In this document: positions 10,981-58,655 of the stretch, piece by piece
How the letters are laid out: each line of letters begins with the position of its first letter
Numbering within the stretch: the stretch's first letter is position 1
IMG/VR virus record: IMGVR_UViG_3300031998_000004
DNA: 64,000 bases
Reading direction: 5' to 3' (one strand)
Source of the DNA: a virus
Taxonomy: Duplodnaviria; Caudoviricetes
Notes under the pieces: generated by a model
Seen by the model: the letters and a program-made list of their open reading frames with translations, nothing else
The model's database searches: none
What the model was told of the DNA's origin: nothing
Program-made: the position numbers and the translations under genes

Positions 10981-11469
10981 TTAGATTTCAGTGCTAAAAT
11001 ATATTGATAAGTATCCGTCGTTTTGTGTACCTGTTGCAAAATGCACTTTAATCAACCTTTCATCTGCATCACTACTATTAGTTGTGACAAATATAGCAAA
11101 ATGTTTGTTATCTATATACTTCGACATCACTTTCCTAACACATTTAGTTAAATTGTGATTACTACTCAGGGCATCCGCGGTTGATATCTGGGTTGCGAGC
11201 AGGTAAACCAGTTCTCTCATCAGCTCGTCATCTTCTGCACTCCGAATCATATCCATAAACTCCCATTTATTACTAGACCACTTCTGTGGCTTGAAGTCTT
11301 TCATCGCTTTATTAAAGTCGTGTTTGATGGCTTGTTTTGCATCTGCTAAATATTCGGTATATCGTTGTGAAAAGAAGTGAACTTCTGTAACCAACGCATA
11401 CAACCACTCCTTCCCGGTATCTTTTTCTACCAGGTCACTATCAAAAAGACTTTCTACAAGACTCTTCAT
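10981..11469 (-). CDS. MKSLxESLFD-leader family protein
   Basis: N-terminus MKSLVESLFDSDL. Confidence 0.7.
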   Translation of the reverse strand: MKSLVESLFDSDLVEKDTGKEWLYALVTEVHFFSQRYTEYLADAKQAIKHDFNKAMKDFKPQKWSSNKWEFMDMIRSAEDDELMRELVYLLATQISTADALSSNHNLTKCVRKVMSKYIDNKHFAIFVTTNSSDADERLIKVHFATGTQNDGYLSIYFSTEI

Positions 11470-11858
11470 GGCTCTTCGACAGGTTCATTTACAGAGGGTT
11501 CTTCTGTCACAGTTTCTTTAGCGAGCACATCCTCAAGGACCTTCTTGCTGTCTTCTCCACTATAAGAGATGTCTTTTCCTCCACCACCAACACTCATGCT
11601 TCCGTTCTTCCAGATAGATGTGATTGAATGGAGACCGAGGAGTGCTGCGCCGGTGATGAGACTGGTCTGAAGTAGGTTTTCAACAATCATCACAGGACCC
11701 GCCGTGATAGTCAAGTACACTATACAACACATACTGACAAAAGCAATAAAGGCACCTACGAGTCGTTTTGCTGACCCGATGCCCTTCTCACTGAATGCTT
11801 CATACAACCAGGTTTTGAATGTCTTCTTACTTTTCTCTTTCTGCTGTGACGAGCGCAT
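11466..11858 (-). CDS. Putative holin
   Basis: Two hydrophobic helices after S.KRLVG, acidic tail, overlaps the endolysin gene. Confidence 0.6.
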   Translation of the reverse strand: MRSSQQKEKSKKTFKTWLYEAFSEKGIGSAKRLVGAFIAFVSMCCIVYLTITAGPVMIVENLLQTSLITGAALLGLHSITSIWKNGSMSVGGGGKDISYSGEDSKKVLEDVLAKETVTEEPSVNEPVEEP

Positions 11859-12483
11859 ATGGTAATCCCATATATTTACATAACGCACATATATGCATGT
11901 TTGCTATAGTCTCTTTGCCTTCTTCTGATTTCAAGAACTCCACTTCTTTATGGTTAGTCATAAAGAGATTCTCTGTGAGCATCGCTGGACAGAGTGTGCC
12001 TGCAAGTACTGTGAAGTTAGCTCTCCACACACCTTCCTTTGGAGCACTTCTATTTCCTTTTAATCCAAACTCCTTCACAACATCATAATAGCAATGTGCC
12101 ATCTTGACACTCTCTGGTGAACAGTTATTGCTTACCCACACACTACATCCGCTAGCGTTGTCTACCCAGCCATCTCCTTTTGGTGAGGATGATGCGGGCG
12201 CTGCGTTGATATGTACAGACAAGAATCTACATTTCTTATCGGGGTTATCACGAACAACCTTATTAACTCTTGCACAACGTTTCTGTAAAGGAATGTCTTC
12301 ATCCTCAGGAACCACTTCAATTACCTCTACTCCAAGCCCACGCATCCCATCAACAATCTTCTTTCCCACTTCTCTATTCCATTCGCCTTCAAAGAGGGTT
12401 TCGTCTGGTGATCTCTTGCCTGCAGTATACTTTCTAGTTCCATGACCGTAGTCAACTAATAAGATGTAATTGTAATCGTTCAT
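11827..12483 (-). CDS. Endolysin, N-acetylmuramoyl-L-alanine amidase (Amidase_3)
   Basis: DYGHG..GKRSPD..E..N, FLSVHINAA, PAMLTENLFMTN zinc-amidase motifs. Confidence 0.9.
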   Translation of the reverse strand: MNDYNYILLVDYGHGTRKYTAGKRSPDETLFEGEWNREVGKKIVDGMRGLGVEVIEVVPEDEDIPLQKRCARVNKVVRDNPDKKCRFLSVHINAAPASSSPKGDGWVDNASGCSVWVSNNCSPESVKMAHCYYDVVKEFGLKGNRSAPKEGVWRANFTVLAGTLCPAMLTENLFMTNHKEVEFLKSEEGKETIANMHICALCKYMGLPYALVTAEREK

Positions 12484-12539
12484 ACTTATATAGTAGTTTT
12501 ATTAAATAATAAAAGGAATCCTACTGGATTCCTTAGGTT

Positions 12540-15629: not shown

Positions 15630-15641
15630 AATAACATATAT

Positions 15642-15917
15642 TTATTTCACGCGGCTTACTATTAAACAATAGTCGTCTCCACGATGAATAAAACATTCAT
15701 TTGGTTTAAGTTTAGATGCTTTATCGCATATACTATCAATTTCCTCTTTATCATCTATATCAAATTGATCAATAATATATTTCTTTAAAGAATCGAAAGA
15801 ATACTCAATAGTAAAATCTCTAAGATCAGTTATATTACTTATATTAACAATAGAATATTTGATACTGTCTATATCAATTTTTCTTTTTTCAGTTATGTAT
15901 TGTATTAAATCTTTCAT
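15642..15917 (-). CDS. Small protein with leader-like N-terminus
   Basis: MKDLIQYITE; TATTATTT motif 4 nt upstream. Confidence 0.6.
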   Translation of the reverse strand: MKDLIQYITEKRKIDIDSIKYSIVNISNITDLRDFTIEYSFDSLKKYIIDQFDIDDKEEIDSICDKASKLKPNECFIHRGDDYCLIVSRVK

Positions 15918-15976
15918 GTATAAATAATAAAAGGAACCTCTTTCGAGATTCCTTTCATCTTAATATTTATATTCTA

Positions 15977-17827
15977 TTACTCTTCTACCGGAGTAAAGAG
16001 ATTGATAAGAGTATCCTTATCAAGTGCAGTAAAGTCGTAGTCTGGAACCACCTGCTTGGTCTCACCGTTCTCATCAACGTAAGTCATCTCGGCCTTCCAC
16101 TCAGTGAACCCGGCGTCAAGCAAGAGTGTCTTGAGGTCAATGACGCTGTGGAGCTTGCGCTTCATCATATCGAACTTATCTACTGAGCTGAACCCACGTG
16201 AGACAATGCTCTGGCCAAAACCAAACTTGCAAGGATAAATCTTGTTATCCATTACAACACCCATCATCTCCTCTCGTCTCTCACTCGTAGTCCACTCCTC
16301 AAACTCTACTGTATTAGGGTCAACCATGTAGTTCTTATCGAGATAATCAATCTCCTGACGCCCCATGAAGTAACGGAACTTACTGCCTTCCTGACCACTG
16401 AATCGGTTGTTCCAAAGAACACCCTCCTGACGGGTACCACCCTTGAAGTAAAGGATTTCGGTTGCCTCAGGCCTTGCGGTAGTCATATCACCGCTGAAGA
16501 GAACCTCTTCTCCACTCCTATAGGCAGCATTCCAACCAATCTTATATCCGCTTGCGTCGGTAAAGGAAAGGTCAAAGTCGCGTGTTCCATCGGACTCCCT
16601 CCAGTAGATACCGAAGTAGTTGTGATTGGACATTTTATAGGCGGAACCGTAAGGAAGGTTTCCAGCGAACTTCTTCTCGGATACTGGACATGCAAGGTCG
16701 ATACTGGAAGGGAAACGAACTACACCCGCCTTCTTGCGGAGCCTGTCAACGAGCTCGGCATAAAGGACTCCGAAGACCCCGTTGAGATACTTCTCATCAA
16801 GAACAACACTCGCGCCATCGTTATCTACCCAGGCCTTTCCGTTCCTGATGAAGTAAGCGTTCTTACCACCGTCCTTTGCAAGAAGGAACCTCTCGCGGAT
16901 GGTCTGAAGGAGTGAGACAATCTTGAAGCTAGTGAGCTCACCAAGTCTGTCATAAACCTCATTAAGGTCCTTACGCTCACCAAGCACTGTCTGCCAGAAC
17001 CCCTCTCGCATAGGAACATGGTTCTTATCAGCCATCCTACGGATGTCATTGATAATCTTCTTGTTCCATACGCTTGTCTTAAATGCAAGGAAGATAGGCT
17101 TAAACCTGAAGAATACCTTTGAGAGTTCGGTGAGGTCTCTCTCGTCAAAGATTCCGAAGTTAATCACTCCTGAGTTAGCCTTGATAGCCTCGATAGTCTT
17201 ACGGTCCTTGATAAGGAGGGCGTTACCAGTAGCCTTATAAACCATCCAACGGACAATCTCAAGCCCACGGCGAGGGTGGATTCCAAGTCGGTCACAGAGC
17301 TGAATCATTGCCTCGCGGTTCTGAACATCCTCTACTGCGAAGTCGGAAGGGATCCAGGCCTTATGATCAACAATGTAGTCGACACAGGTGGTTACCATAT
17401 CGTTAGACATAGCGATACCACTGGTGAGCATCCCGATACACCTCTCAACAACCTCCTTAATGGTTGCAAGTCCAATGACCTTGTAGGTCTTGATGTCCGG
17501 AACATCACTCCTGTCGTCATCGTTGCACTTGTATACGAACTCGCTCTGGAAATCGGTTCCGTAAGTGGTTGCGTAGTGGAGGACCTGGTCGATGAACTGT
17601 TCGAACCTGGACTTGGACTTCATCTGCTTCCAACTCTTATAAAAGGTGGAGTTATAGTCAACTGTCTCGGATTCAATGAAACGTATAACGTCCTCATTGA
17701 TAAGTTCCGGATAGATAATCAAGTAACCTCTCTTGAGTGCCTCACTGAAAACATAGTCCTTGTTATTGAGCTGCTTTGATTCGGTCGTGCAAACTCCAAA
17801 CGCCTTAATAAGAATTGGATTCATCAT
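15977..17827 (-). CDS. Phage protein with C-terminal TerD-like domain
   Basis: GIYW..DFDLSF..IGWN..LFSGDMT.A.PEATE resembles TerD DxDLS/SGD motifs; probable start MMNP at 17827. Confidence 0.6.
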   Translation of the reverse strand: MMNPILIKAFGVCTTESKQLNNKDYVFSEALKRGYLIIYPELINEDVIRFIESETVDYNSTFYKSWKQMKSKSRFEQFIDQVLHYATTYGTDFQSEFVYKCNDDDRSDVPDIKTYKVIGLATIKEVVERCIGMLTSGIAMSNDMVTTCVDYIVDHKAWIPSDFAVEDVQNREAMIQLCDRLGIHPRRGLEIVRWMVYKATGNALLIKDRKTIEAIKANSGVINFGIFDERDLTELSKVFFRFKPIFLAFKTSVWNKKIINDIRRMADKNHVPMREGFWQTVLGERKDLNEVYDRLGELTSFKIVSLLQTIRERFLLAKDGGKNAYFIRNGKAWVDNDGASVVLDEKYLNGVFGVLYAELVDRLRKKAGVVRFPSSIDLACPVSEKKFAGNLPYGSAYKMSNHNYFGIYWRESDGTRDFDLSFTDASGYKIGWNAAYRSGEEVLFSGDMTTARPEATEILYFKGGTRQEGVLWNNRFSGQEGSKFRYFMGRQEIDYLDKNYMVDPNTVEFEEWTTSERREEMMGVVMDNKIYPCKFGFGQSIVSRGFSSVDKFDMMKRKLHSVIDLKTLLLDAGFTEWKAEMTYVDENGETKQVVPDYDFTALDKDTLINLFTPVEE

Positions 17828-17860
17828 AACTTTTTTTGTTTTAATTTCGTGTATAAAAAA

Positions 17861-17922: not shown

Positions 17923-17938
17923 ATCATAGTTCTAAACA

Positions 17939-18003: not shown

Positions 18004-18026
18004 ATGTTTTATAAATATAAAAAGGA

Positions 18027-19458: not shown

Positions 19459-20655
19459 TTAGTTTATTTTTCGGACAGCATCAAACAAAACATCAGGATC
19501 GATATCGTACTTCTGTGCGTTGAGTTTCATGTGGTTGATTGTCTCTTGGAGTATTTGACTAATACGAGCTATACTTAAACCCTCCTGATCGGAGATCTCT
19601 CGTGGGGTCATCGGTCGTGGTAATCCAATACCAAATTTCTTAAGGAAAATAACCCGATCTCTTGTCTTTACCCCATCAAGGAGTTTTTTAAGTGATTCCT
19701 TAAATGTATAATATGCTTCATTAATATCCAGGTCAGTTCGTGAGTCGTCTTCTATCATCAGAAGGTCCCCAACCGTAGTATCTGAGTCGGACTTGACGGG
19801 TGCATCTATATCAACAGTAATCTCTTTCTTATAACTACCAAACTCCTCCTTCTCCTTCTTAATATCCGCTTTGGGTTTCTTAACAAGCCTGCTGTAGTTA
19901 TCTAGTTCAATCATTATATAGGCGCGTATCCACATGCTAGCTACCGAACTGAACTTTGCATTTTGAATATTCTTATCGACCCACTTCAGTACTTCTTCTT
20001 TCTTATACTGACCTGGCTTACCAAACCGATATACAAACTTATTCTTAACATCACCGTAAGTGAAGAATGAGTTAACAGCCGCTTCAATATCCTTATATGT
20101 AACGGTGTCTGGTAAGGATTCAAGAGCGACCCGCACGTCATCATGGAGAGTGGACTTCTTCGGATTATACTTATCCCAACTAATCACTAATCCCAAGTTA
20201 CCGGCACTAATGAGATCTTGTAGACTCAGACCCAGTCCCTGGAAGCCCTTAGCTATACTAATAACTGTCTTGAGATTCATAGATATAAGTTTATCACGAT
20301 TCTCAGGACAGTACTCGATATCAAAATCGTTATTGTTCTTGGTATAAATATGATTAATCTCCTTGAAATATTGCTGGATGGAGTTCTCTGGAATCCACTC
20401 ACCCGGGGCTTCCTTCATAATATCAAATGCATCTTCAATAGAGATGTTCTCGCGTATCGCTACGTGGAGCGCGGATTTTAAGATTGTATCAAAGTTAGAA
20501 AATTTGTTTGCTTTCTGCATCACGTTCATCCCGTCTTCAATACTTGACATAGAGTCTTCAAGTGGAACGGGACAGCATTCTAAATTATCGTATTTATCAA
20601 TTAAATCGGAATTTTTATCAATAAAACTTGTGAGTTTTTCTTCATATGTTAACAT
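19459..20655 (-). CDS. Sigma-70-family RNA polymerase sigma factor
   Basis: Region 2 NLKTVISIAK, DLISAGNLGL, KFS..A..WIR; region 4 HTH MTPREIS..GLSIARISQI. Confidence 0.88.
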   Translation of the reverse strand: MLTYEEKLTSFIDKNSDLIDKYDNLECCPVPLEDSMSSIEDGMNVMQKANKFSNFDTILKSALHVAIRENISIEDAFDIMKEAPGEWIPENSIQQYFKEINHIYTKNNNDFDIEYCPENRDKLISMNLKTVISIAKGFQGLGLSLQDLISAGNLGLVISWDKYNPKKSTLHDDVRVALESLPDTVTYKDIEAAVNSFFTYGDVKNKFVYRFGKPGQYKKEEVLKWVDKNIQNAKFSSVASMWIRAYIMIELDNYSRLVKKPKADIKKEKEEFGSYKKEITVDIDAPVKSDSDTTVGDLLMIEDDSRTDLDINEAYYTFKESLKKLLDGVKTRDRVIFLKKFGIGLPRPMTPREISDQEGLSIARISQILQETINHMKLNAQKYDIDPDVLFDAVRKIN

Positions 20656-21600: not shown

Positions 21601-23229
21601 TTAATTTAATTTAAGTTTCCATTTTACATGCCCTGAATCATATATCCTATAAAATGGTAATTCATTCATTATTTCAAATTCGGTTTTATTTTCAGTATCA
21701 TATCCTAATTGATTTAATCTAGATTTAGTAAAAGAAGTCCTATGATATCTAATATAACTAGATTGATTTATATACCAATATGCATTAGTAATTTTCCCAT
21801 TGGTCAAAAATCCTAGTTTTTTATATAAATCCCCATTGCTGATATCATTAGATGAAAATGACACTATACTTGATGGATTATATTGTCTAATGAAATATTT
21901 TAATAACCTATCAGCGCCTCCAATAACCTGGGTGTTTAATTTCGTGCAAAATCTTGTTAATTCCCAACAATTATCATTTTTACCTCCGCTTAATTTACTT
22001 CTTTTTGAAAAGGTCATAACACCGATCAAATTATTTTGATAAAATAACCCAATTTTAACGGAAGCATTTGTTTTACCTTGAATATGATTTTGATTAAGGA
22101 AATCGATATATTCATCTCCTATTTCTTTAATATCGCACTTTCTGGCATATATTCGTTCATTATATATACCAAGTTTAGATAATAACAGAGATTTTACTAT
22201 TTCCGGATGTAATTTAATCCAATCCTCCCATATAGAAATTAATTGAATTCCTTTTTCTTTACATTTTAAATACTTCTCTTCATGATAATGAATTGGTTTA
22301 TTATCGGAATCGTGCCAGTAGCACCCGTTGCATTCAATAGCAATGGATTTTGATGGAATAAATATATCAATTTCTTGATTCTCTAATATAGACCTATTCC
22401 TTTCAACAAAATTTATATTATATTCAATCAATATGTTTTTTACAAATTTTTCCAATCCCGATTGATTCGAATGTAGAGGATTTTGTTTTGTACACAAAAC
22501 CGTTCCAATTTTATTTCTATCCCAATATGTTCCGGAAAATATTGTAAAATGTTTCTCTTTACATAAATCACAATTACAATCATTACATTTTACTTCCCAT
22601 GACCCATCATCGTTATACCATAATACATCAGGATTATCTTTTAAAAAATTATTTCTATGTTTATTTAATATTTTCTTTTTATTTTCTTCGATATTTTGGG
22701 GCAAATTTAATATTTCAACATAATTTTTAACTCCATATTTTTTCTTAAAAGTTTCTTCTTTTTTTAAAATTATTTCTGGTGCATGTAAAGTGCAAGTTAC
22801 ACCATATTTTTCGAGACTTTTATTTTTCCTTTTTTCTACAACCGAAGGAATTTGGGAAACATTTTCTACACCGTATTTTTTTAACGTTGTTTGCTTAGCC
22901 TTATCCCTGTTTGTAAAATGTTTTTCTCCATATTTTTTTATAGAAGTGTCAATTCTTTTTTGTTTAGTATCTTCTCCTTTACCGCAACATACTAATGAAC
23001 AATATTTATGATAATATTTATCTGATTTATTAAACGATACTCGCTCTCCGCATATAGCACATACTGGATAATTGATTATATTATTTTTCCACCAATAAAG
23101 TTTTTCTAACCACGTTATATCATCCGGATAATTATCAATTAAATATTGATAAAATTCGGGGAAATGATTTTTAATATATTCTTCTCTCCAATAATATCCT
23201 TTGGTTATTGTTTTGTCTGGTTCTATCAT
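21601..23229 (-). CDS. Hef-like putative homing endonuclease: Zn-finger, KKYGV repeats, PD-(D/E)xK nuclease, C-terminal GNAT-like domain
   Basis: CAIC..CSLVC; four K/EKYG repeats; EIDIFIP..IAIECNG.YWH; IWED; ELTRFC..GG..RLLKYF..LYKKLGF; very AT-rich. Confidence 0.75.
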   Translation of the reverse strand: MIEPDKTITKGYYWREEYIKNHFPEFYQYLIDNYPDDITWLEKLYWWKNNIINYPVCAICGERVSFNKSDKYYHKYCSLVCCGKGEDTKQKRIDTSIKKYGEKHFTNRDKAKQTTLKKYGVENVSQIPSVVEKRKNKSLEKYGVTCTLHAPEIILKKEETFKKKYGVKNYVEILNLPQNIEENKKKILNKHRNNFLKDNPDVLWYNDDGSWEVKCNDCNCDLCKEKHFTIFSGTYWDRNKIGTVLCTKQNPLHSNQSGLEKFVKNILIEYNINFVERNRSILENQEIDIFIPSKSIAIECNGCYWHDSDNKPIHYHEEKYLKCKEKGIQLISIWEDWIKLHPEIVKSLLLSKLGIYNERIYARKCDIKEIGDEYIDFLNQNHIQGKTNASVKIGLFYQNNLIGVMTFSKRSKLSGGKNDNCWELTRFCTKLNTQVIGGADRLLKYFIRQYNPSSIVSFSSNDISNGDLYKKLGFLTNGKITNAYWYINQSSYIRYHRTSFTKSRLNQLGYDTENKTEFEIMNELPFYRIYDSGHVKWKLKLN

Positions 23230-26597: not shown

Positions 26598-27101
26598 ATG
26601 AAAAGTCTACAAGAAAGTTTGTTTGATGATAACATAACTAAGGATATTGTTATTTCGGAATTATTTGAAATAACCAATATTTTTATACGAAGTGATGTTC
26701 GTGATTGGATTGATGAAAATTTTCAATATAATATCCTATTTAAAAACAGAGAAAAATTCGAATTACATAATTATCCCAAAGATATAGATAAGAATTCTTT
26801 AGCATTACAAACAATTTTAAGTTATATTGATTCTATACCAGTAAGTTTGTTTTGGGACGGTACAGAATTTTATCGAAAAAACCTTTACGATAAACTTGAA
26901 ACTATAAAAAAATATAAGAGACAACCAAATATACCTAATTTTTTTGTTGAAGGAGTTCATCCTATTTTTGATCAAAAAAGAAGAAATTCTCGAATAAAAA
27001 AATTATCAGGGTTTGATGTGCAATTTATGGTTATAGATAAAGAAAAATTTAAGGAATCATTTGGTGGAAGAGAAATAATTATAAAATATAAACTAAAATA
27101 A
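26598..27101 (+). CDS. MKSLxESLFD-leader protein, array member 1
   Basis: MKSLQESLFDDNITKD. Confidence 0.75.
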   Translation: MKSLQESLFDDNITKDIVISELFEITNIFIRSDVRDWIDENFQYNILFKNREKFELHNYPKDIDKNSLALQTILSYIDSIPVSLFWDGTEFYRKNLYDKLETIKKYKRQPNIPNFFVEGVHPIFDQKRRNSRIKKLSGFDVQFMVIDKEKFKESFGGREIIIKYKLK

Positions 27102-27102: not shown

Positions 27103-27732
27103 ATGAAAAGTCTACAAGAAAGTTTGTTTGATAAGGATCTATTGGATAAAGGAGTAGTATTGGGCACCGACGCTGCTTGCGAATATTTTACAAGCATCCT
27201 ATCAAAATCAGACTTTGTTAAGTATAATAAATATGACTCATCAAAACGTTCATATAATATTAATCGAGGGAACACCTCTTTCCAAGTTACCTTGATGGGA
27301 CACGTATCATATAGTACAACAAATACCATGAGGGGTCTTGATCGTATAATTGATTACCAACTCAAGATGTATTTTGATACATATAAAGATGGATGTGTTA
27401 TAAATTACGTCGATTTCGAATTTAGTCATGGAACGGAGATGGATGGAGAAAATTTTGGTTATATTCCCAAAGGTATTGGTAATAAACGATATGTATTGAT
27501 TTCATCCGACAATATAAATAGAATATTTAATCACTACGTTGAATTGTTTGATAAGATGGAAAAATATTTCTACTCTAAAGAATTCAAAGATATTGTTACT
27601 GATGGAAAATTAGATAAACCAATATGGGCAATATGGGGGTTGTCTGATGCTCTATATAACAGAAGATTGAATAAATATAAAGAAAACAAGAAGCAAATTC
27701 TTAATGACCTTAAAAAGCATATAAAAAGTTAA
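27103..27732 (+). CDS. MKSLxESLFD-leader protein, array member 2
   Basis: MKSLQESLFDKDLLDK. Confidence 0.75.
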   Translation: MKSLQESLFDKDLLDKGVVLGTDAACEYFTSILSKSDFVKYNKYDSSKRSYNINRGNTSFQVTLMGHVSYSTTNTMRGLDRIIDYQLKMYFDTYKDGCVINYVDFEFSHGTEMDGENFGYIPKGIGNKRYVLISSDNINRIFNHYVELFDKMEKYFYSKEFKDIVTDGKLDKPIWAIWGLSDALYNRRLNKYKENKKQILNDLKKHIKS

Positions 27733-27734
27733 TA

Positions 27735-28343
27735 ATGAAAAGTTTACAAGAAAGTTTGTTTGATAAAGATTTAACCCAAAAACGCATACTTGATAAAATG
27801 GATTTGACTCAAGTATGTGAATGTGTTACTGATATATATAAAGATTATAAGAACAAACTAAATATCAACTTTTATTCATTTCCTCCGAGATACAAGTCGG
27901 ATACAACGGCTCGTTTTATGATACACTGGGGTAGTCATAGAGCCGATGCGTCGCATGATTGGATATATGAGACAGAAATTAATTTCACCGCAAGAAATGG
28001 AAAGAGTGGTAAGATGTGGTTTGACCCTATTACAGTTAGTGTCAATGTTAGATCAACCAAATGGAGTTTTAGACTTCCTATGATATATATCAAATGGACA
28101 TTAGGAAAATATATTTATTGGGATGGAAACAATCCAAAGGATGAAGATATTATAAACGTTTTGGAAAACATAAAGAATATTTTTGAAGATGTGGCAGTTA
28201 TGTAAAAAGAACTTGAATGGTGGTTTGAAAAGAATATTCCTGATGATTACTATCTATCAGAAATTTCTAACGAAACAAAACTACACAAGGCATTTGTAGA
28301 AATTGTCGAGAATAAATGGTTTAAAAATATAATGCCTAAGTAA
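27735..28343 (+). pseudogene. MKSLxESLFD-leader protein, array member 3, interrupted by in-frame TAA at 28203-28205
   Basis: Frame stays open for 45 more codons to TAA 28341-28343, which overlaps the next ATG. Confidence 0.6.
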
Positions 28344-28795
28344 TGAAAAGTCTTAAAGAAAGTTTGTTTGATGATAATATAAAGAAAGACCTCACTATTA
28401 GGGATGTCTGCGAACTCAACCCAACCAAAACTGGTCGTGGTATTGTAGCCGCGGGTCTACCAATCGGATATTTCTTTAGTGTTGACAAACTAAAAAAATA
28501 CACCCACCCATATGACATAACAAGTAATCCGGAATACAATTCCTTAGATTATCTTATTGGTGTGATCGTAGACCAACCAATACCTTCAAAATCCAATGTT
28601 AAGACATCTGATCATAAATGGTGTGAAAATCTCAAAAAGGTACTTACTAAATATGTTAACAGAGGTTGGAGATTAGAATGGGATAAAAAAATTGATGTGT
28701 ATTTAATTGAATACCCCGATGATTGTTTCGCAGTAAGTATAGATTTTGATAGTGGTACAGGTTCATACGAATTTATTTTCAAACCCAAATCATAA
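28343..28795 (+). CDS. MKSLxESLFD-leader protein, array member 4
   Basis: MKSLKESLFDDNIKKD. Confidence 0.75.
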   Translation: MKSLKESLFDDNIKKDLTIRDVCELNPTKTGRGIVAAGLPIGYFFSVDKLKKYTHPYDITSNPEYNSLDYLIGVIVDQPIPSKSNVKTSDHKWCENLKKVLTKYVNRGWRLEWDKKIDVYLIEYPDDCFAVSIDFDSGTGSYEFIFKPKS

Positions 28796-38567: not shown

Positions 38568-38615
38568 ATATAAATAATAGATTTCCGTGATACTATAGTA
38601 TCATATAAATAATAA

Positions 38616-39173
38616 TTATTTACTACTCACCATCACTAGCGGAATAAACCAATGAACAGTCATATCAACAACAGTACAACTATCTGAATGAAATTTAATA
38701 TGTAAGTATCCAATATTGTCTGGAGACGGATCATATCCACGTTGACCTATTTTATGTCGGAGTACATACCCCTTGTATACATTAGAGAAGTATTCGGAAA
38801 GATTATTGTTAAATGATATAAAGAGTGGATCAGACTCAATCTCTAACTTGGATGACGATGGAAGATACCCGCGGAGAACATCGGCTATCTGAGTAGGGAT
38901 AGATTTAGTACAGTTTGTATTAACTTGAAGGTTCCCATAATTTTCATTAAACCTCTCAACCACATCTTTCACATCATCATACCATAGACATGATGTCTCA
39001 AAATTAGACTTCAACACATCCACTATAGGTTCCTCATTTAGAGTTGTTTTCTTTGCCTCCAGAAACCAAATACTACTATCACCGAAGACAAATAACATAT
39101 CATCATTGATAGGTTGAAGGAGGTATTTTAACTGTATTCCTTCTATATTTTGTGTAGAATCAAACAAACTCAT
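38616..39173 (-). CDS. Hypothetical protein starting MSLFD
   Basis: Short version of the family leader. Confidence 0.6.
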   Translation of the reverse strand: MSLFDSTQNIEGIQLKYLLQPINDDMLFVFGDSSIWFLEAKKTTLNEEPIVDVLKSNFETSCLWYDDVKDVVERFNENYGNLQVNTNCTKSIPTQIADVLRGYLPSSSKLEIESDPLFISFNNNLSEYFSNVYKGYVLRHKIGQRGYDPSPDNIGYLHIKFHSDSCTVVDMTVHWFIPLVMVSSK

Positions 39174-41531: not shown

Positions 41532-42014
41532 TCAAACGAGTTCCTTTCTTTTTAATGTTATCTCTATCCTCTGTGGTATGAATGTGTTGACGTGAATAAT
41601 TATAAAGGTGTATGATTTATCTCGAAGTTTAACATTAACCGTCACATCCCCACCTTCTCGAATCTTCGTTTGTTTGAGACAAGAAGTAAATGTTTTTGAT
41701 AAGTTTTCTTCATTAAGAGACGGCACTACAAGACACATAAGGATGATATACTTGTAGATGTCATTAAGATTATAGATAGATCTTTGATTTAGAACATTAT
41801 TTATCTCGTCAAAATCTTTTTGAGATATCTTCATCGATCCATCATCGTTACATAGTAATCCCCGAAGAGTATCAACTATCTTTGTTTTAGAGAAGTTGAT
41901 TTTGAAGGCATCTCGCCAAGAGATATGTTTATGATTTGGATTGGTACAGTCCCAGAACTTGTACACCATCCCCACCCATGGGTCTTCGATTATATTTTCA
42001 GAGAACAAACTCAT
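41532..42014 (-). CDS. Hypothetical protein starting MSLFSE
   Basis: Short version of the family leader. Confidence 0.55.
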   Translation of the reverse strand: MSLFSENIIEDPWVGMVYKFWDCTNPNHKHISWRDAFKINFSKTKIVDTLRGLLCNDDGSMKISQKDFDEINNVLNQRSIYNLNDIYKYIILMCLVVPSLNEENLSKTFTSCLKQTKIREGGDVTVNVKLRDKSYTFIIIHVNTFIPQRIEITLKRKELV

Positions 42015-42225: not shown

Positions 42226-42648
42226 TTAGAAATAGATTCCCCTCTCAATCTGTAGTCTCTCCAGGGAGTCACTACTGTGTATCCCATTTCTCATCTCGCT
42301 CTCACCAATTTCCTTCCGGATATGATCTTTGATCTTATCTGTCTCGGCAAACATCTTTGAAGACATCGATCCGTCTTTGACAAATAAGATAGCAGTGCTG
42401 GGGGCACTAGACATATACTTACATAGGTCCTTAAAGAAATCCTCTTTTTTATGTGGTTCGTAGAGTCGTTTGGCTTCCTCAGGGAGGAGTTGTTTAGTTC
42501 TTATCCGATCAACACGCCATCCTCGTTTAGCAAATTCATCTATGACGAAAGCCGTGTCTTCAAGGAATCCGGGTTTCACAATAACAAATATATTCTGTCT
42601 ATTGTCATCAACAAGTGATGGTCCAAGTGATTCGATTAATGATTTCAT
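42226..42648 (-). CDS. ndk: Nucleoside diphosphate kinase with leader
   Basis: VIVKP, LY.PH...FF..L..YMSS.P, RNGIHSSDS; N-terminus MKSLIESL. Confidence 0.85.
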   Translation of the reverse strand: MKSLIESLGPSLVDDNRQNIFVIVKPGFLEDTAFVIDEFAKRGWRVDRIRTKQLLPEEAKRLYEPHKKEDFFKDLCKYMSSAPSTAILFVKDGSMSSKMFAETDKIKDHIRKEIGESEMRNGIHSSDSLERLQIERGIYF

Positions 42649-45949: not shown

Positions 45950-46399
45950 TTAATATACAACAATTCCTTTAGTGGCATCAATTTTAAATCTCTTATCGCC
46001 AATCACTGCGTCATTTGCTTGTCTACGATCGGTTTTTTGTTTTGGTTTTGGTGTTGTGCTTATTACATTCTCATTTTCAATATCATTTACATCAGGAGTA
46101 TGTGCAAAATTAGGAATATCAAGAGCCGATGGTACTATTAATGTCATTCCTACATTCAATTCAAATGGGTTAGATATTCCATTGAGTTTACATATTATAT
46201 CAGCAAACATTGAATCTCCATAAAGATCAAAAGATACAAGATCTGGACGAGCTATATACTTTTTATTTGTCACTTCAAATACACCATAATCAAACGTACT
46301 TGGTAATGAGTAGGTATTATCAAGTAAGTTCCATATATTATCATCTAAAAAATCCGAATGGATTTGTGTCTTATTAGCTAATATTGTAGATTGATACAT
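45950..46399 (-). CDS. Baseplate wedge protein, gp53/LysM-like
   Basis: RPDLVSFDLYG..ADIICKLNGISNPFEL..G..L.VP. Confidence 0.75.
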   Translation of the reverse strand: MYQSTILANKTQIHSDFLDDNIWNLLDNTYSLPSTFDYGVFEVTNKKYIARPDLVSFDLYGDSMFADIICKLNGISNPFELNVGMTLIVPSALDIPNFAHTPDVNDIENENVISTTPKPKQKTDRRQANDAVIGDKRFKIDATKGIVVY

Positions 46400-46487: not shown

Positions 46488-47966
46488 TTACTTTATACTT
46501 CTCCATGCACGGAACTGTGCGCGGATTGCACGCTCGCGTTCGTCAGCAATCTGTTCAAGGCCTTCGTAGATGTTCTTCACCTGAGGAACTACATTGAAAT
46601 CGATTGACTCCCAGAATCTCTGAATAGCACCTTCGTTATTGAAGTTATAGAGTTTTGCGCGTCTGTTGATTGATTCCTTCATTTCATCACTTGCGGACTC
46701 ATAAAGAGGACGTACTGCCTCGGGCATCTCCTGGATGAACTTAGGAGCGTCTTCGTTAACTGACTTTGCTGATTTAAAGATAGGTTTGCTCACTTCAATT
46801 CCTTCAAGAAGTTTGAGTGTATCTTCAATTGAAGAAAGACTGTTCTTCTTGGACTCGGTAACTGCATTAGCGATCTGTTCCTCTACCTTAGGTGCATAGT
46901 GCTCATTGAGCCATGCCTGTGATGCAGGAGCGTACTCTTCAACGATCCAGCTCTGGATACCCTGAGCGAACTCTGTGGTTGCCCAACGCTCAACCTCACC
47001 ACCGAACTCTTCAACGACCCATGTCTGGATCTTAGGTGCGGCTTCGTTAAGGAGATAGTCTTTGAATGCATCCATTGCTTCATCAACCATTTCTCCCTTA
47101 TACTCAGGAGCAAACTCTTCGGTGACCCAACCAGCAATCTTAGGAGCGAACTCATTGACACACCAGTTCTGGATTCCTTCACATAATTGTTCTAAATCAA
47201 ATTTAGGAGCCTTCTCGAGGGCCTCGTTAAGTTTCTTATTTTCATCCTCGAGGGTCTGTACTCTTTCCTCGAGTTTTTCTAACTTTTCAAGTTTCTCGAG
47301 AATCTCATTCATTTCCATATTGTTTTCTTCGGGTTTATTTTCTATATTTGTTTCTTGTTCTTTTTCTGTTACGTAGAAGATGTTTGATTCGGGGATCTGT
47401 GTATAGACATCATCACCGACCTCAGCACGACCCTCAGCACTCATCTTGTTCTCAAAATCAACCATCTGACTCTCGTTAAGGTGAAGTCTTGCCTGAGAAA
47501 AACCAGGAGTCCCCACAAGGTCATATGTAGATATTCTTTCAAGAGTGACTGCACCAGTCTTAGGATCTACATTACCCATAGCGCGGCTAGAGATAAACAA
47601 TGGAAGTCCACCTTCAACGATTGACTGAGCAATCTTTCCCTTAGGAGTATTGAGAAGTGTGATTGTGCCACTCACTACACCATTCTCGTCAATATTAATA
47701 TCAGTAATTTTGTGTGAGATGTTTTCAAGTGTGATGTTCATATACTGAGGATGCTCGAGCTCGCCAGGGATTCCACCATCCTGTCTGATTCTCCCTTGCA
47801 TCTCTTCAACCATCTTCTTATAGTTAGAAGTCTCGTATACACGGGAATTATTATTGCGTACACCACAAACACCGAATGTACCACTCAATGTCATCAAACC
47901 ATTTTCTTTAGAAATGGTCATTGACTTGGCGTCATTTAAGGTTTCATAAATGTAACTTTGTTTCAT
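46488..47966 (-). CDS. Prohead protease (T4 gp21-like) fused to scaffold-like C-terminal region
   Basis: NNNSRVY, GELEHP, ISHKI, LLNTPKGKI, ISSRAMG, YDLVGTPGF; acidic coiled coil and repeats afterwards. Confidence 0.88.
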   Translation of the reverse strand: MKQSYIYETLNDAKSMTISKENGLMTLSGTFGVCGVRNNNSRVYETSNYKKMVEEMQGRIRQDGGIPGELEHPQYMNITLENISHKITDINIDENGVVSGTITLLNTPKGKIAQSIVEGGLPLFISSRAMGNVDPKTGAVTLERISTYDLVGTPGFSQARLHLNESQMVDFENKMSAEGRAEVGDDVYTQIPESNIFYVTEKEQETNIENKPEENNMEMNEILEKLEKLEKLEERVQTLEDENKKLNEALEKAPKFDLEQLCEGIQNWCVNEFAPKIAGWVTEEFAPEYKGEMVDEAMDAFKDYLLNEAAPKIQTWVVEEFGGEVERWATTEFAQGIQSWIVEEYAPASQAWLNEHYAPKVEEQIANAVTESKKNSLSSIEDTLKLLEGIEVSKPIFKSAKSVNEDAPKFIQEMPEAVRPLYESASDEMKESINRRAKLYNFNNEGAIQRFWESIDFNVVPQVKNIYEGLEQIADERERAIRAQFRAWRSIK

Positions 47967-48032: not shown

Positions 48033-49343
48033 TTATTCGAAAATTGTCTTCATATAACTAATTAAATCAACAAACGATTCGTTTTTTGGCGGTTCCCCAT
48101 TAATCCATTCTTTGGACCAGCTGCCATCTTTTGGTTTAACCTTATAATACTTGCCACCTCGGGGTCCCGTCATCTTTTTATATTGTTTACCGTCAGATCC
48201 TGTTTCTGTCTTAACAAGAAATGAATCTTCATCTTTACCAGCGGCTTTTGCTGCTTGTTTGAGTTTATCTTCTAGTTCCTTAATTTTATCTTTATCCTTT
48301 TCATCATCAAGTTCACCAATCTCATTTTGGATTTTTTCAATATCTTCGTTTGAAAGTTTATTTGTTTCAGTTTTTTCTTCTTTATTATCTTTTATAATTC
48401 TTTCAAGTTCATCATCTATTTCTTTAATTTTCTTATCATATTCTTCTTGAGATTGTTTCAATTGTTTGTCTTTTTCTTCTTCACCAATTTCTTTTTTACT
48501 AGCTTTATCATTTATTTCTTTATCGCGTTTTTCTTTTTCATTCAATGCATTTTCTTTATCTTCATTGGCTTTATCAGTCGCATTAGCAATGTTAACAATT
48601 TTTTTAATATCATTTACTATACTATCAGGGGCCCCTGATGCCTTATAAAAATTAACAATTGGTGAATCGTTTGGATTTTCTTTATGTGCTTTGGCTATAT
48701 CTTTGTGTATTTGAATGGCTGATTTTTTATTATCTTCTTTTTGTTTTTCAATTTCTTTTGAAGTGATTTTACTAAAATCCAATTGATCCTTAAAAGAACT
48801 GTTTTGTTCTTTTGAAAGATTTTTAGCGATTTTGTCAAAGTCATTTTTAAATATTTCGGATACGTCATTTCCGCCATTCATTTCTTCGGCAAATTTTTTC
48901 CTATCCTCTGGAGATCTTAAATTACCATTTTCGTCATATAAACAAGCATTTGTCTGATTTAATAACATTTTTGCATGATCAACCTCAGGGCCTTCTTTTC
49001 CTTCCATCATCTTCTTCATCAAAACCTGTGTTTTGACTATTTCATCTACTTGTTTGTCCTCCGATAGTTCACTAATCGGTTTAACTTCTTTAACTTCTTT
49101 TCCATCATCTTTTTTTGAACTTTTTGAACCACCAAATAAAGAAGCAGTATCCCCGAGATCATCTCTTTTATCACCAAGCTTGTCTTTTATATCATCATCC
49201 CATTCTTTTCTTTTGTTTTTACTAAACCAACCAAATAATCTAGCGATCCCGCTAAAAAGACCAACCGTTAAAATGGGTAATAAAAACATTTCATTGACTG
49301 TTGCTTGTTGATGTTGATCTATTAAGTATTCTTTAAGATCCAT
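48033..49343 (-). CDS. Lys/Glu/Asp-rich hypothetical protein
   Basis: MDLKEYL leader-like start, hydrophobic helix, GPRGGKYY motif. Confidence 0.6.
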   Translation of the reverse strand: MDLKEYLIDQHQQATVNEMFLLPILTVGLFSGIARLFGWFSKNKRKEWDDDIKDKLGDKRDDLGDTASLFGGSKSSKKDDGKEVKEVKPISELSEDKQVDEIVKTQVLMKKMMEGKEGPEVDHAKMLLNQTNACLYDENGNLRSPEDRKKFAEEMNGGNDVSEIFKNDFDKIAKNLSKEQNSSFKDQLDFSKITSKEIEKQKEDNKKSAIQIHKDIAKAHKENPNDSPIVNFYKASGAPDSIVNDIKKIVNIANATDKANEDKENALNEKEKRDKEINDKASKKEIGEEEKDKQLKQSQEEYDKKIKEIDDELERIIKDNKEEKTETNKLSNEDIEKIQNEIGELDDEKDKDKIKELEDKLKQAAKAAGKDEDSFLVKTETGSDGKQYKKMTGPRGGKYYKVKPKDGSWSKEWINGEPPKNESFVDLISYMKTIFE

Positions 49344-49914: not shown

Positions 49915-49958
49915 GAATAAATAATAAGAATTGTTGTTATGTAAATTATTATTTATGT

Positions 49959-52250: not shown

Positions 52251-52251
52251 G

Positions 52252-55299: not shown

Positions 55300-55313
55300 A
55301 AAAAAAGGAAGAC

Positions 55314-55538: not shown

Positions 55539-55557
55539 GATTTAATATATTTATAAC

Positions 55558-56130
55558 ATGAGCATATTTAATACATCACCCACACAAGGACTCAAGGTAA
55601 GAGAAATATATGAGATAGACGCAAAAGAATCTCGAGCATTGGTTTCTCAAACAACCACATCGGTATTATATAATTACTTCGAACCAACATATGAAAGAGC
55701 ATTTAATTTGTGCTGGGTGACAAACGCTGGATATCATTTCTGGGGTGAATACAAAAATCAACATTGGGAAGGACTTGGATATAATGAATTTCTGAGTAAA
55801 GCTTTGAGAGCATTCGGTGAGTGTGAGATTGGAGGACTATCTAACCTCAATTCTCAACTTGAGTCTCTCTGTGACGAACCGGTGTTCCGAGTTGATATAA
55901 TACATGATTTTATGAAGTCTACATCGTCGGGACAAATAATAAATTATCCAATGAAGGGATCGAAGAAGCACCCCATCATACTCACCTTCCCTTGGATAGA
56001 TAGTAATCTTGTTGAACGACACCCATGGGCAATACTTTACGTGTATAACAACCAAAAAGAAACGATACACGTTGCTGCAGTTCCACTCATTCCAAAAAAG
56101 GGCATGGAGGATGTGTTTAACGCGCTATAA
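55558..56130 (+). CDS. Hypothetical protein starting MSIFN
   Basis: 190 aa; start resembles the MSLFD variant. Confidence 0.55.
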   Translation: MSIFNTSPTQGLKVREIYEIDAKESRALVSQTTTSVLYNYFEPTYERAFNLCWVTNAGYHFWGEYKNQHWEGLGYNEFLSKALRAFGECEIGGLSNLNSQLESLCDEPVFRVDIIHDFMKSTSSGQIINYPMKGSKKHPIILTFPWIDSNLVERHPWAILYVYNNQKETIHVAAVPLIPKKGMEDVFNAL

Positions 56131-56207
56131 ACTCTTGTATAATCGAGATAAAATAAAAGGATGACCATTAGTCATCCTTAAATTTTTCATTCAAATATGA
56201 AGAGTTA

Positions 56208-56981
56208 TTAGTCTCCTACGTACTCACCACTCCGTTTGCTAGCATAGTATCCTGCTATTCCTCGGCTGGTTGCTTCGTGACTGCTTGCGAAGTTCTGTAA
56301 TCTCTTGTCTGTCTGTAAATAAGAAAGAAAATCTTTAAGTTTCTTTTTATCGTACTTTGCAATGAGTCTTATCGTGAAACTCGGAACCGGAACACCAGCA
56401 CCTCTTCCCTCGTACTCAACCACCTCACATCCGGTTCCCGACATACAATCCCAAAGTTTACGACGAAGTACTGTCATGTCTTCTGCAGGGAGGTTATTGT
56501 ATCCGTTGCCGTATTGAGAATCCTTAAAGTACACCCCTATCATACTAGGAGAGACAGTGTAGTTATAGTTATCTTCACGGAACTGTTTTGCAGTACCGGT
56601 TGTAAGCTTGAGTTTGGTTGTTCCAACTCGCACAGCACCACCAAGGCCGGATTCCTTATCACATCCACTTATCCACTCCCCATTGACCCCGATCCTACTG
56701 AGTTCAGCAAGGACTGCTTCGAGTAACTTATTGTCATTCTTTTCGATGTACAACACCATTTCTATCATAGAAGAACAAACAATATTTCTTCTCTTGGGGT
56801 TGTCTTTGAACCAGTCATCGACCATTTTTAAGATGTTCTCTTTAGCGACCCCGTTGGCGAGTTCGGACATAATACTTTCCAGTTTACTATCACCAACCGA
56901 TAGAGGGGCTGATTTAAGATCGTACTCAGGGACAATCACTTTGACTTCCCGAGGATTGACATATTCGTATAATGGTCTCAT
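56208..56981 (-). CDS. Hypothetical protein with leader-like start
   Basis: MRPLYEYV; C-terminal YY..K..G.YVGD. Confidence 0.6.
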   Translation of the reverse strand: MRPLYEYVNPREVKVIVPEYDLKSAPLSVGDSKLESIMSELANGVAKENILKMVDDWFKDNPKRRNIVCSSMIEMVLYIEKNDNKLLEAVLAELSRIGVNGEWISGCDKESGLGGAVRVGTTKLKLTTGTAKQFREDNYNYTVSPSMIGVYFKDSQYGNGYNNLPAEDMTVLRRKLWDCMSGTGCEVVEYEGRGAGVPVPSFTIRLIAKYDKKKLKDFLSYLQTDKRLQNFASSHEATSRGIAGYYASKRSGEYVGD

Positions 56982-57011
56982 GATTTTAATTATTAAATTT
57001 TCCCTGAATCT

Positions 57012-58655
57012 TTAGAATCCAAAATTCTTTAATTTTTTATCTGCAGTCTCTATAGCATCTTTAAGTCTCTTTGTTGCGCCTTCGAGATTTCTGTAATCAT
57101 AATCCTCTGGTTTTGTTTTATAACTATTTCCAAAGCATGATAAGTAGGCATCCATAAAACATTTGAAAATATACATCAATCCGTTATCTCCATAGTATGC
57201 GGGGCCACTATCGTGTTTCCATGATTTATAGCTGGGATTACTCCTCTTTTCATCTCTTAACCATGTAAAGAATCTTTCAACATCATACTTATTAAATGCT
57301 TTGGGGTCTTTGGTAATAGCACGAGTGAATTTGAATACTCTTGTATTGATTTGTTCGTATTCATCAATGACCTTATCGTATCCTTCAGCTTCGTCATTCT
57401 TTTTTCTCTCAAGACGGATTTGAGCAACCATGTCCTTATATCTCTTCATGTTTGCAGCAGCAATAGCTTTATACTGTTCGACATCACCAGGATTAATAAC
57501 ACCAGCTTGAGCATCCGCCCTATTTTTTCTGATATTCCAACGCTCGTCGTTACCAGTACCGGTGTCCTTACCAGTATTTAATACTACAACAGTATAGCCA
57601 CTTCCGTAATTAAGAATCCGGTCGCGAGCTTCAGACTTACCATAGTAGCGTGTATCTATCTTATTTGAATAACTTCCCTTATGGGGAATATTTACCCAAA
57701 CAATCGACCAACCACTTCCACGAAGTTTAGCCTGTTCACCAAATCCACCAATAAACTCACCAAGGTCTTCGTTATAAACCAAGAATATATCGCCACCATC
57801 AGCGTCTCCGGAACTGTATGCGCTATAGAATGCCTTACCAAGAGTCTTTTTATCTTTCTCATCACTCATGTCATAAACATCAATATCATCATTAGTGATT
57901 TTGTCAAGAAGTCTTCCCGAGCCCGAGAAACCACTGGATCTAGAGTGATTTCTGATTAAGTTATCTAATTTATTATACTTCTGTTTGGAATCATCTTCCC
58001 ATGACCATTCCTTATAAGGGTACTTCTTAAGCTGTGCAGCAAGACGTTGCAACCACTGATTGTTAAGTGTTTCATTTACAACACCTTCAACCACATCAGC
58101 CTCGATTTCGTCCTCTCCACAGAAGACTTTCTTTATAACATGGACCTTTTCTTTCAACTGGTCTACTGTATACTTCTTTCCGTTTCCGCTCCAATATATA
58201 TTACCAAACACAGTATCTATCCCTTTACAATCCTTCAACTTCTTACAGTTAGTTACAGAGAGGTCTCCTTTTATGAGTTCGGGAATACCAACAAGGGAAA
58301 CGAGAGCCGGACATTGATTGATAGTGAGACTCCCATCGAATATAGCGAATTTCTCAAGGAAAGAACCTTCAAATCCTGTGAGTTTTGGACAGTTCTCAAT
58401 AATCAACTTACCATGGAAGTCTTTAATATTGATATTAAGAGTTTCTGATTGTACCCCACTTATAATCAACTTTCCATTAACTCTACAGCTACCATCTTTG
58501 AAGAACACAGTATTAAAGGAACCCTTACATGTATCCAAGAACATCTTTGTTGTGTCCTTTGCAATTCCTTTCTCGAGTCTATCTCCGCCTTCAAAATCAA
58601 ACATCCCTTCGGCAAGAGCTACTATATTTCGCGATATTTCTTTTAACGATCTCAT
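57012..58655 (-). CDS. Leader-family protein with leucine-rich-repeat-like N-terminal domain
   Basis: MRSLKE..LAEGMFD; repeats L.I.NCPKL..EG, L.INQCPALVSL.G.P..I.G.L.V.NC. Confidence 0.6.
   Translation of the reverse strand: MRSLKEISRNIVALAEGMFDFEGGDRLEKGIAKDTTKMFLDTCKGSFNTVFFKDGSCRVNGKLIISGVQSETLNINIKDFHGKLIIENCPKLTGFEGSFLEKFAIFDGSLTINQCPALVSLVGIPELIKGDLSVTNCKKLKDCKGIDTVFGNIYWSGNGKKYTVDQLKEKVHVIKKVFCGEDEIEADVVEGVVNETLNNQWLQRLAAQLKKYPYKEWSWEDDSKQKYNKLDNLIRNHSRSSGFSGSGRLLDKITNDDIDVYDMSDEKDKKTLGKAFYSAYSSGDADGGDIFLVYNEDLGEFIGGFGEQAKLRGSGWSIVWVNIPHKGSYSNKIDTRYYGKSEARDRILNYGSGYTVVVLNTGKDTGTGNDERWNIRKNRADAQAGVINPGDVEQYKAIAAANMKRYKDMVAQIRLERKKNDEAEGYDKVIDEYEQINTRVFKFTRAITKDPKAFNKYDVERFFTWLRDEKRSNPSYKSWKHDSGPAYYGDNGLMYIFKCFMDAYLSCFGNSYKTKPEDYDYRNLEGATKRLKDAIETADKKLKNFGF

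Follow-up and report, generated by a model that had tools for sequence, protein, structure and literature searches.

Why should many proteins that otherwise look unrelated begin with the same dozen or so amino acids? The question is raised by a stretch of 64,000 nucleotides (here called the window) from a virus of the Caudoviricetes (IMG/VR record IMGVR_UViG_3300031998_000004), in which a first-pass annotation, made from the letters alone, had noticed a shared N-terminal leader, MKSLxESLFD, and had proposed that it targets a variable set of proteins to the capsid for injection with the DNA. All of the N-termini quoted in that annotation were found where it had placed them, and the motif count that it suggested, run on the window with a back-translated MKSLxESLFD pattern, gave six matches, all of them starts of open reading frames (ORFs), at 11469(−), 26598(+), 27103(+), 27735(+), 28343(+) and 38567(−), against none in 100 shuffles. 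Looser forms open the ORFs at 37962(−) (MKSLSQYIYEGLFN), 58655(−) (MRSL..LAEGMFD), 15917(−) (MKDLIQYITE), 56981(−) and 49343(−) and the nucleoside diphosphate kinase (NDK) gene at 42648(−) (MKSLIESLGPSLVDD), and three ORFs that had escaped the earlier annotation, 39173(−) (MSLFDS), 42014(−) (MSLFSE) and 55558(+) (MSIFN), open directly with the second half of the tag. Strict and looser forms together account for about 13-15 of the 67 ORFs in the window. The pattern E[SG][LM]F[DN] occurs within the first 40 residues in 8 of the 67 ORFs and not once among the 17,487 residues elsewhere; across four contigs, namely the window and three related IMG/VR contigs, it was found 32 times near an N-terminus and three times internally.

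A two-part leader in fixed register

The leader divides into two modules, a predicted propeptide of T4 type and, behind it, what we call the SLFD box. The first module is either MK[ST]LxE or a 10-residue form, MKx[LI]xx[YF][IL]xE, and ends in [L/I/M]xE; the second, S-[LI]-F-D-x-D-[LI]-[VI]-x-[KR]-D, begins after the predicted cut (marked ↓ below). Three classes result. Proteins of class (a) carry the peptide only, M-[KR]-x-[LI]-x-x-[YF]-[IL]-x-E (for example MKTITEYINES and MKAINEYINES, and in the window MKDLIQYITE at 15917(−)); those of class (b) have the 10-residue peptide or MK[ST]LxE abutting the box (the six strict members, 37962(−) and 58655(−)); and in class (c) the box stands after Met1 (for example MSLFDKDLITSE and MSIFDKDIIEK; in the window 39173(−), 42014(−) and probably 55558(+)), the starts of this leaderless class being genuine, as stop codons lie upstream of them. 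A doubled leader, MKSLxESLFDSKTQMTESLFDxDL, also exists.

The register of the box is strict: it begins at residue 2, 7, 11 or 18, always right after Met1 or [L/M/I/T]-x-E, and it has six internal matches across the ~83,000 residues of the four contigs. At the predicted cut (n = 32) the P3 residue is Leu in 21 cases, Met in five, Ile in four and Thr in two, and all 32 have Glu at P1 and either Ser or Gly at P1′. The propeptide, the box or both are carried by 32 of the 155 ORFs of one relative (G002), and 15 proteins in the contigs have the 10-residue propeptide alone, with no box.

The leader forms are exchanged as modules. Short, long and double forms interchange on homologous bodies, and no sampled body crosses between the propeptide and leaderless classes, orthologues keeping their class. 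The leader is kept in all 11 orthologues of 27103 (45-89% identity), one of which has the long form MKSLASHINESLFD; in a second relative (G001) the orthologues of 37962 (45% identity) and 58655 (62% identity) start MKHLSQYIIEGLFD and MKSLINVLNEGLFD, respectively, and that of 56981 starts MRTLFE↓SII. The NDK leader is a 17-19-residue addition ahead of the domain, the G001 orthologue starting MKTLYEALDF. Within the leaderless class, the G001 orthologues of 39173 (3838-4314) and 42014 (16850-17320; 52% identity) start MSLFDIERNI and MSIFDTNLVEE. In the syntenic slot of 38567, G001 has a gene with a double leader on an unrelated body.

The first module resembles the propeptides of T4 head proteins. 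In the T4 record, IPII and IPIII start MKTYQEFIAE↓A, IPI MKTFKEF..ITE↓A, gp24 MAKINELLRE↓S, gp67 MEGLIEAIKSNDLV and Alt MELITELFDED. The 10-residue form found here keeps positions 4, 7, 8 and 10 of MKTYQEFIAE, and in T4 residues 4 and 7 have been mapped to targeting and residues 8 and 10 to processing (PMC9026906; PMC8442874). The propeptides of T4 virion proteins range from 7 residues (Alt) to 65 (gp23) (PMC9026906), and T-even phages carry varied cargo behind tag-like constant sequences (PMC3012670, PMC9026906). A pattern for the 10-residue form, M-K-x4-[YF]-h-x-E, had 15 matches in G002 against none in a reversed control and also retrieved T4 ipII and ipIII; it was not expanded in PTm1 or LR756500, where the few matches contained stop codons or were at chance level. 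The six-residue form of the strict members keeps just M-K-x-L-x-E and so agrees with the T4 tag in part. The hypothetical T4 protein gp61.1 (AF158101 18966-19130, 54 residues) also starts MKTFKEFIKE, near the capsid-targeting sequence.

Taken as a system, the leader shares with the IPII/IPIII tag a length of about 10 residues, an N-terminal place on unrelated proteins, agreement at positions 1, 2, 4, 7, 8 and 10, and (L/I)xE before a small residue; genes for an S77 protease and for a capsid protein of gp23 type are present here too. It differs in that the dominant form has six residues and is followed by an 11-residue box absent from the T4 internal proteins, in the bigger repertoire (about 13-15 ORFs per 64 kb, 32 of 155 in the relative and at least 279 clusters), in a cargo that is not strongly basic, and in being known from sequence alone. 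T4 Alt, an ADP-ribosyltransferase (ART) that is packaged in the head and injected, has a similar layout, a propeptide of ~6-7 residues ending in IxE and then LFD and acidic residues (MELITE↓LFDED against MKSLxE↓SLFDxD), and is a direct precedent for a six-residue propeptide. Alt is, however, one protein in T4, and its ART-domain body was not found here.

The head propeptides of phiKZ, 201phi2-1 and SPN3US offer a further comparison. There, too, processing after Glu affects many proteins of the inner head, and the protease is cut within its own C-terminal part, but these propeptides are mostly longer than 100 residues with a small P3 residue (S/A/G-x-E, S80), whereas those described here have 6-10 residues, P3 L/I/M and a second box. 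The diverged SPN3US paralogues gp53 and gp54 have identical N-termini (PMC5694885). As a separate observation, a 478-residue protein of G002 (L015, 92835-94271) has a 10-residue propeptide followed directly by a hydrophobic, membrane-type helix, a layout like the one described for gp47, an ejection protein of SPN3US.

The head module, the predicted cut and the promoter-like motif

The protease of gp21 type on which the first-pass annotation relied is encoded in the window, by the ORF at 46488-47966(−), which scores above the Pfam cut-offs for both Peptidase_S77 (31.2 bits; cut-off 27) and Peptidase_S80 (29.5 bits; cut-off 23.4), and the gp23-family capsid protein (149-1912) has ~35% identity to the capsid proteins of the Tenacibaculum phage PTm1 and of Lak megaphages. 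The protease itself contains 11 [LIM]xE[SGA] sites against ~1.4 expected (p = 3e-7) and is the top outlier in the window, as is its G001 orthologue on that contig (p = 1e-5). A conserved IYE↓GL close to its C-terminus mirrors the YIYE↓GLF of 37962, and the capsid protein has VYE↓AL near residue 40, where G002 has IFE↓GL. We infer that this protease is the enzyme that would cut after [LIM]xE and before [SGA].

The tail of the protease (residues ~230-492) is Glu-rich and helical; W-x-x-E-E-[FY]-A-P units recur in it, and [LIM]xE[SGA] sites are numerous. The tail looks like a built-in scaffold that would be digested at maturation; a PTm1 protein annotated as 'prohead core scaffolding protein and protease' likewise has a Glu-rich helical repeat tail. 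The Lys/Glu-rich protein encoded beside the protease (48033-49343) is a possible ejection or core protein, judged by its sequence, and its gene is absent at the syntenic place in G001.

A promoter-like motif is common to propeptide-class, structural and lysis genes. The motif, TTATTATTTA, occurs 10 times in the window against 0.9 expected, every copy being intergenic and followed by a gene in the same orientation; among the genes so preceded are the endolysin gene, the target gene of a diversity-generating retroelement (DGR), tail-fibre-like genes and the ORFs at 15917 and 38567 (the latter also having ATTATTTATATATG upstream), and copies with one mismatch are found ahead of the head operon (ORF 45950-46399) and of the array of four leader genes that starts at 26598. 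A proximal form, ATTATTTWWNNATG, was found 11 times in the window against 0.27 expected, and the promoter-like sequence ATTATTTTTATATG ends at the ATG of 26598. From their placement, TTATTATTTA and ATTATTTWWNNATG are probably a late promoter or initiation region of the clade. Among genes with an upstream gap, TTATTATTTA with at most one mismatch precedes 9 of 14 genes of the propeptide class against 41 of 148 others (p = 0.007), and none of the six genes of the leaderless class (p = 0.012), a distribution that fits late co-expression of the propeptide class with the virion genes. Parts of the array also turn up, at no less than 99% identity, on contigs of one bovine-gut RNA library; such contigs do not bear on transcription, strand or timing.

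The explanation to which we give most weight, while placing it somewhat below an even chance, is that a cleavable propeptide of T4/Alt type loads late-made proteins into the prohead, and that the docking handle behind it is also used, unmasked, by a class of proteins that is not packaged. The propeptide, MK[ST]LxE or the long form, would take its protein into the prohead core late in infection, and the S77 protease (46488-47966) would remove it after the invariant Glu by the rule [L/I/M]-x-E↓[S/G]; the SLFD box, a floppy docking handle, would then become the exact N-terminus of the mature protein. In the second class the handle lies right after Met1, and removal of Met, before Ser or Gly, would expose the same end. 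The handle would most likely bind one shared partner, with the sliding clamp as a tentative best candidate in view of the likeness between the handle and three protein tails, those of the clade PolB, of a flap-nuclease-like protein and of RB69 gp43. The cargo would be a fast-changing set of small proteins.

The earlier proposal of capsid targeting is thus retained for one half of the leader. It agrees with the T4-type propeptide ending in (L/I/M)xE, the T4-like head module, the different folds of the cargo and the shared promoter-like motif; it does not extend to SLFDxDLVxKD. This box is the best-conserved part of the leader and, coming behind the predicted cut, would be retained by the mature protein; as it also heads ORFs that have no propeptide and resembles replisome tails, capsid targeting alone does not explain it.

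Several observations weigh against the combined account of propeptide and handle. Conservation peaks on the prime side of the predicted cut, which is not so in the T4 tag, and since the protease's own candidate sites have no SLFD, the box does not serve for recognition in general. Mature tagged proteins are not strongly basic (median isoelectric point 6.5 for those of the contigs, 8.1 for the wide set), and NDK would be an odd head cargo. The likeness of the box to clamp-binding tails spans ~4 residues, and clamp binding would not require a strict register after Glu or Met1. Finally, 'late' is inferred from which genes carry the promoter-like motif, and the promoter statistics rest on small numbers.

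Some narrower ideas about the cargo and the tag were set aside. That the cargo is basic and embedded in the DNA, as in the case of the T4 internal proteins, does not accord with the median isoelectric points just given; homologues of T4 IPI, IPII or IPIII were rejected, as the mature parts gave no PHROG or Pfam match and are not highly basic; and the tag, read from its sequence, has no hydrophobic core and is thus not taken for a secretion or lipoprotein signal.

The SLFD box and the competing explanations

Ends that resemble the box are found on replisome proteins. In the relatives, PolB ends ..QMNLFDF (G001 30869-31780; the polymerase of the window phage itself lies outside the window) and a 5′-3′ exonuclease-like (flap-nuclease-like) protein ends ..ESIFEDIQ or ESIFEEIS; RB69 gp43 ends ..KKASLFDMF.., T4 gp43 and gp55 end SLDFL[FY], and the T4 clamp-loader subunit gp62 (AF158101 30342-30905) starts MSLFKDDI(QL), near the leaderless class. 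The RB69 and T4 tails bind the gp45 clamp, and the bacterial β-clamp motif is QL[SD]LF, which is N-terminal in Hda. As in these tails, the box is a short, portable hydrophobic-acidic peptide at a flexible protein terminus, and the RB69 tail opens with the same four letters, SLFD; unlike these tails, the box is N-terminal, follows Met1 or Glu in strict register and is carried by dozens of small proteins. A search for the clamp (PF02916, T4 gp45) in the relatives and PTm1 gave no match and is uninformative, the controls giving none either. With a likeness of ~4 residues and no clamp gene seen in these uninformative searches, the clamp is a candidate partner, not a finding. At C-termini in general, [LIM]F[DE] was not enriched (12 seen, 7 expected).

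The phage sigma factor encoded in the window ends in a conserved stretch (Table 1) that is kept in 103 of 120 homologues, and the T4 late sigma factor gp55 binds the clamp by its tail. The stretch may be related to the box or may be just the last helix of the fold, and with the latter alternative in mind it was not counted as a clamp motif.

A first alternative is a docking tag with no packaging: MKSLxESLFDxDL as a whole would recruit small proteins to an intracellular hub such as the sliding clamp, and MKSLxE would be a tolerated cap, with no cutting and no loading. The idea, which we judge unlikely while still taking it seriously, would account for the box standing alone as a start in the M-SLFD class, for its resemblance to the polymerase, nuclease and gp62 sequences above, and for a cargo that is not basic; in addition, position x is most often Gln (48 of 147, in a set selected by a profile of such sequences), giving QESLF, near QL[SD]LF. 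It leaves unexplained, however, why the pre-sequence always ends in [LIM]xE against the box, why it can be swapped with a 10-residue peptide like the T4 tag, why orthologues keep their class, and why the promoter motif of structural genes is found in the propeptide class alone.

A related idea combines the box with both of its possible exposures, as two delivery routes to one handle: Met removal would expose it on proteins made in the cell and cutting by the prohead protease would expose it on injected ones that had first been loaded into the head, and a single hub, possibly the replication clamp, would receive both. We regard this as doubtful but worth stating, as, if true, a large and rapidly exchanged arsenal, with hundreds of cargo families across the clade, would be directed to one cellular address.

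More generally, were the tag to work as the propeptide-and-handle account proposes, the internal cargo of three or four proteins known from T4 would be extended to modular delivery with hundreds of interchangeable payloads in this clade of abundant jumbo phages of the cattle gut, and a second address label would have been added to it. Candidate injected proteins, likely to include takeover or counter-defence factors, could then be listed from sequence in uncultured phages; a new short linear motif and its hub would be defined; and a six-residue packaging tag would be at hand for phage engineering. The Alt start ...ITE↓LFDED, the gp62 start MSLFKDDI and the polymerase tails together hint at an old link in T4 itself.

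The opposite simplification, which we consider improbable, is that the whole leader of 15-17 residues, box included, is a capsid signal that binds the scaffold core, that the M-SLFD proteins are packaged unprocessed, and that the likeness to replisome tails is coincidental. The T4-like head module, the similar starts of the T4 core proteins gp67, Alt and gp24, and the flexible N-terminal extension that the leader forms in both structure models (below) are in keeping with it. Against it are the 15 box-less proteins with a 10-residue propeptide, which, if packaged as in T4, would mean that the box is not needed for targeting; the lack of the structural-gene promoter motif before all six leaderless genes; and the circumstance that the best-conserved element, the box, would remain on the mature protein.

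The first-pass annotation had also held that the bodies behind the leader show no mutual similarity. At the level of BLAST this is so: similarity among the six strict proteins stops near residue 16, and 185 tagged bodies were sorted into 34 components. At the level of profiles it is not, as hhalign joined 5 of the 13 larger body families into one superfamily (81 of 152 sequences, 28343 included) and left at least eight body groups unlinked; about half of the sampled bodies therefore belong to one divergent superfamily, and the bodies are not all 'unrelated'. Annotation of the bodies was sparse. Pfam and PHROGs, searched with ten tagged proteins, matched NDK alone; the product of 26598 had no Pfam or PHROG match, the leaderless and loose members had no PHROG match, and among 142 tagged proteins Pfam found DUF285 repeats alone, in three. 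The 547-residue product of 58655 gave only weak leucine-rich-repeat-like or receptor-L-like neighbours in searches of PDB sequences and Atlas structures, and its body may be of the leucine-rich-repeat kind.

AlphaFold models of the products of 27103 and 28343 (mean predicted local distance difference test score, pLDDT, 84; predicted template modelling score, pTM, 0.8) have different topologies, the body of 27103 being a confident alpha/beta model. Fold searches against solved structures gave no clear match, with a best Z of 7.4 (background level) for 27103 and of 3.5 for 28343. In both models residues 1-6 have pLDDT below 50 (residues 1-10 of 27103, ~51), and as modelled the tag is a flexible N-terminal extension and not part of the fold.

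The superfamily gives some substance to a further alternative, that there is no portable signal at all: the proteins would be fast-diverging paralogues with a slowly changing N-terminal helix, homogenized as tandem copies recombine or undergo gene conversion. Tandem arrays are present both in the window and in its relatives, and the 30-nucleotide leaders of 26598 and 27103 are identical, synonymous sites included. We nevertheless give this little credence, because the tag is carried by at least eight body groups unrelated by profile, by NDK, by DUF285 repeat proteins and by two different predicted folds; because dispersed copies use different serine and leucine codons (the leader serines of 38567 are TCA and those of the array AGT); and because different leader forms sit on homologous bodies and the box keeps to four fixed registers.

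The codons also bear on conservation at the DNA level only, which had been named beforehand as something that would refute the proposal. Across 39 box copies the serine is coded by AGY in 22 and by TCR in 13, and the leucine by TTG, TTA and CTN; codon families switch while the residues stay constant, the mark of selection on the peptide, and DNA-level-only conservation was ruled out on this ground. Hence the idea of a nucleic-acid element, a 5′ end that serves translation initiation, mRNA stability or recombination and whose peptide has no role, is largely refuted and has only a very slight chance of being right, for all that the leader codons are A/T-biased (GAA 37 of 39, TTT 38 of 39) and the four tandem genes have a near-identical 30-nucleotide start, since dispersed copies do not share that start, the conserved stretch shifts to residue 2, 7, 11 or 18 and can double, and the DNA upstream of leader genes is not conserved. 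In one DNA run (X6), metagenome contigs matched just the 30-40 nucleotides of the leader (window 27731-27769 and 28343) and diverged from the window to either side, as they would if the samples held numerous further leader genes or exchanged cassettes.

Distribution, coordinates and other features of the window

The leader extends well beyond the window. A degenerate DNA pattern retrieved four contigs in IMG/VR, three of them relatives with several copies and the fourth a chance match in a 12-codon frame, and a profile of the first 34 residues, searched against 1.84 billion representatives, gave at least 279 clusters at 50% identity (E ≤ 1e-3), nearly all aligning from residue 1 and most of them 130-200 residues long. 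No published description of the motif was found in the literature. The phage is of an uncultured jumbo type: its protease sequence also lies on metagenome contigs of up to 240 kb, and the window DNA is present in bovine-gut metagenomes from several studies. A megablast search with 13.5 kb against the phage collection gave zero matches, and thus no close DNA relative there. The coordinates of the features discussed are collected in Table 1.

Table 1. Tagged ORFs, head genes and other features, by position in the window (↓, predicted cut; aa, amino acids).
Position	Strand	Feature	N-terminus or other detail
26598-27101	+	Array gene 1, 167 aa, short propeptide and SLFD box	MKSLQESLFDDNI
27103-27732	+	Array gene 2, 209 aa	MKSLQESLFDKDL
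27735-28205	+	Array gene 3, 156 aa	MKSLQESLFDKDL
28343-28795	+	Array gene 4, 150 aa, member of the large divergent body superfamily	MKSLKESLFDDNI
10981-11469	−	Leader gene, 162 aa, body in 19-member family 1	MKSLVESLFDSDLVEKD
37959-38567	−	Leader gene, 202 aa	MKSLYESLFDKDL
36934-37962	−	342-aa protein, 10-residue T4-like propeptide and box	MKSLSQYIYE↓GLFN
57012-58655	−	547-aa protein, long leader variant	MRSLKEISRNIVALAE↓GMFD
42226-42648	−	Nucleoside diphosphate kinase, degenerate tag	MKSLIE↓SLGPSLVDD; Pfam NDK domain at residues 20-140
15642-15917	−	91-aa ORF, 10-residue propeptide alone, without SLFD box	MKDLIQYITE; TTATTATTTA directly upstream
56208-56981	−	257-aa ORF, loose propeptide-like start, weak membership	MRPLYEYVNPRE
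38616-39173	−	Leaderless class, box right after Met1	MSLFDSTQNIEG
41532-42014	−	Leaderless class	MSLFSENIIEDP
55558-56130	+	Probable leaderless-class ORF, borderline box match	MSIFNTSP
149-1912	−	Major capsid protein, T4 gp23 family	Pfam Gp23, 89 bits, above Pfam cut-off
46488-47966	−	Prohead protease (T4 gp21/phiKZ gp175 type) fused to Glu-rich helical repeat tail	Pfam
48033-49343	−	Lys/Glu-rich 436-aa protein beside protease	MDLKEYL..VNE↓, then hydrophobic helix (sequence reading)
19459-20655	−	Phage sigma factor	C-terminal 16 residues with conserved ..D[ILV][LM]F[DE]A[VI][RK]K..
3256-3265, 12503-12512, 15921-15930, 38606-38615, 49918-49927, 49946-49955, 63560-63569		Promoter-like motif, example sites	TTATTATTTA

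Two further features of the window may be recorded. The DGR mentioned above lies at 3609-9326(−), with a reverse transcriptase gene at 3609-4784, a template repeat at 4809-4993 and a variable repeat at 5846-6030, which sits in the 3′ end of a gene for a 1160-residue protein (5844-9326); the two repeats are 90% identical, and 18 of their 19 differences fall at template adenines. In addition, the ORF at 21601-23229(−) belongs to a family of large ORFs, homing-endonuclease-like (PHROG 3339/559), with a common ..FPEFY.. start, which has many copies in L011-L020 and is scattered across the relatives, one copy splitting the PolB gene of G001 into two ORFs.

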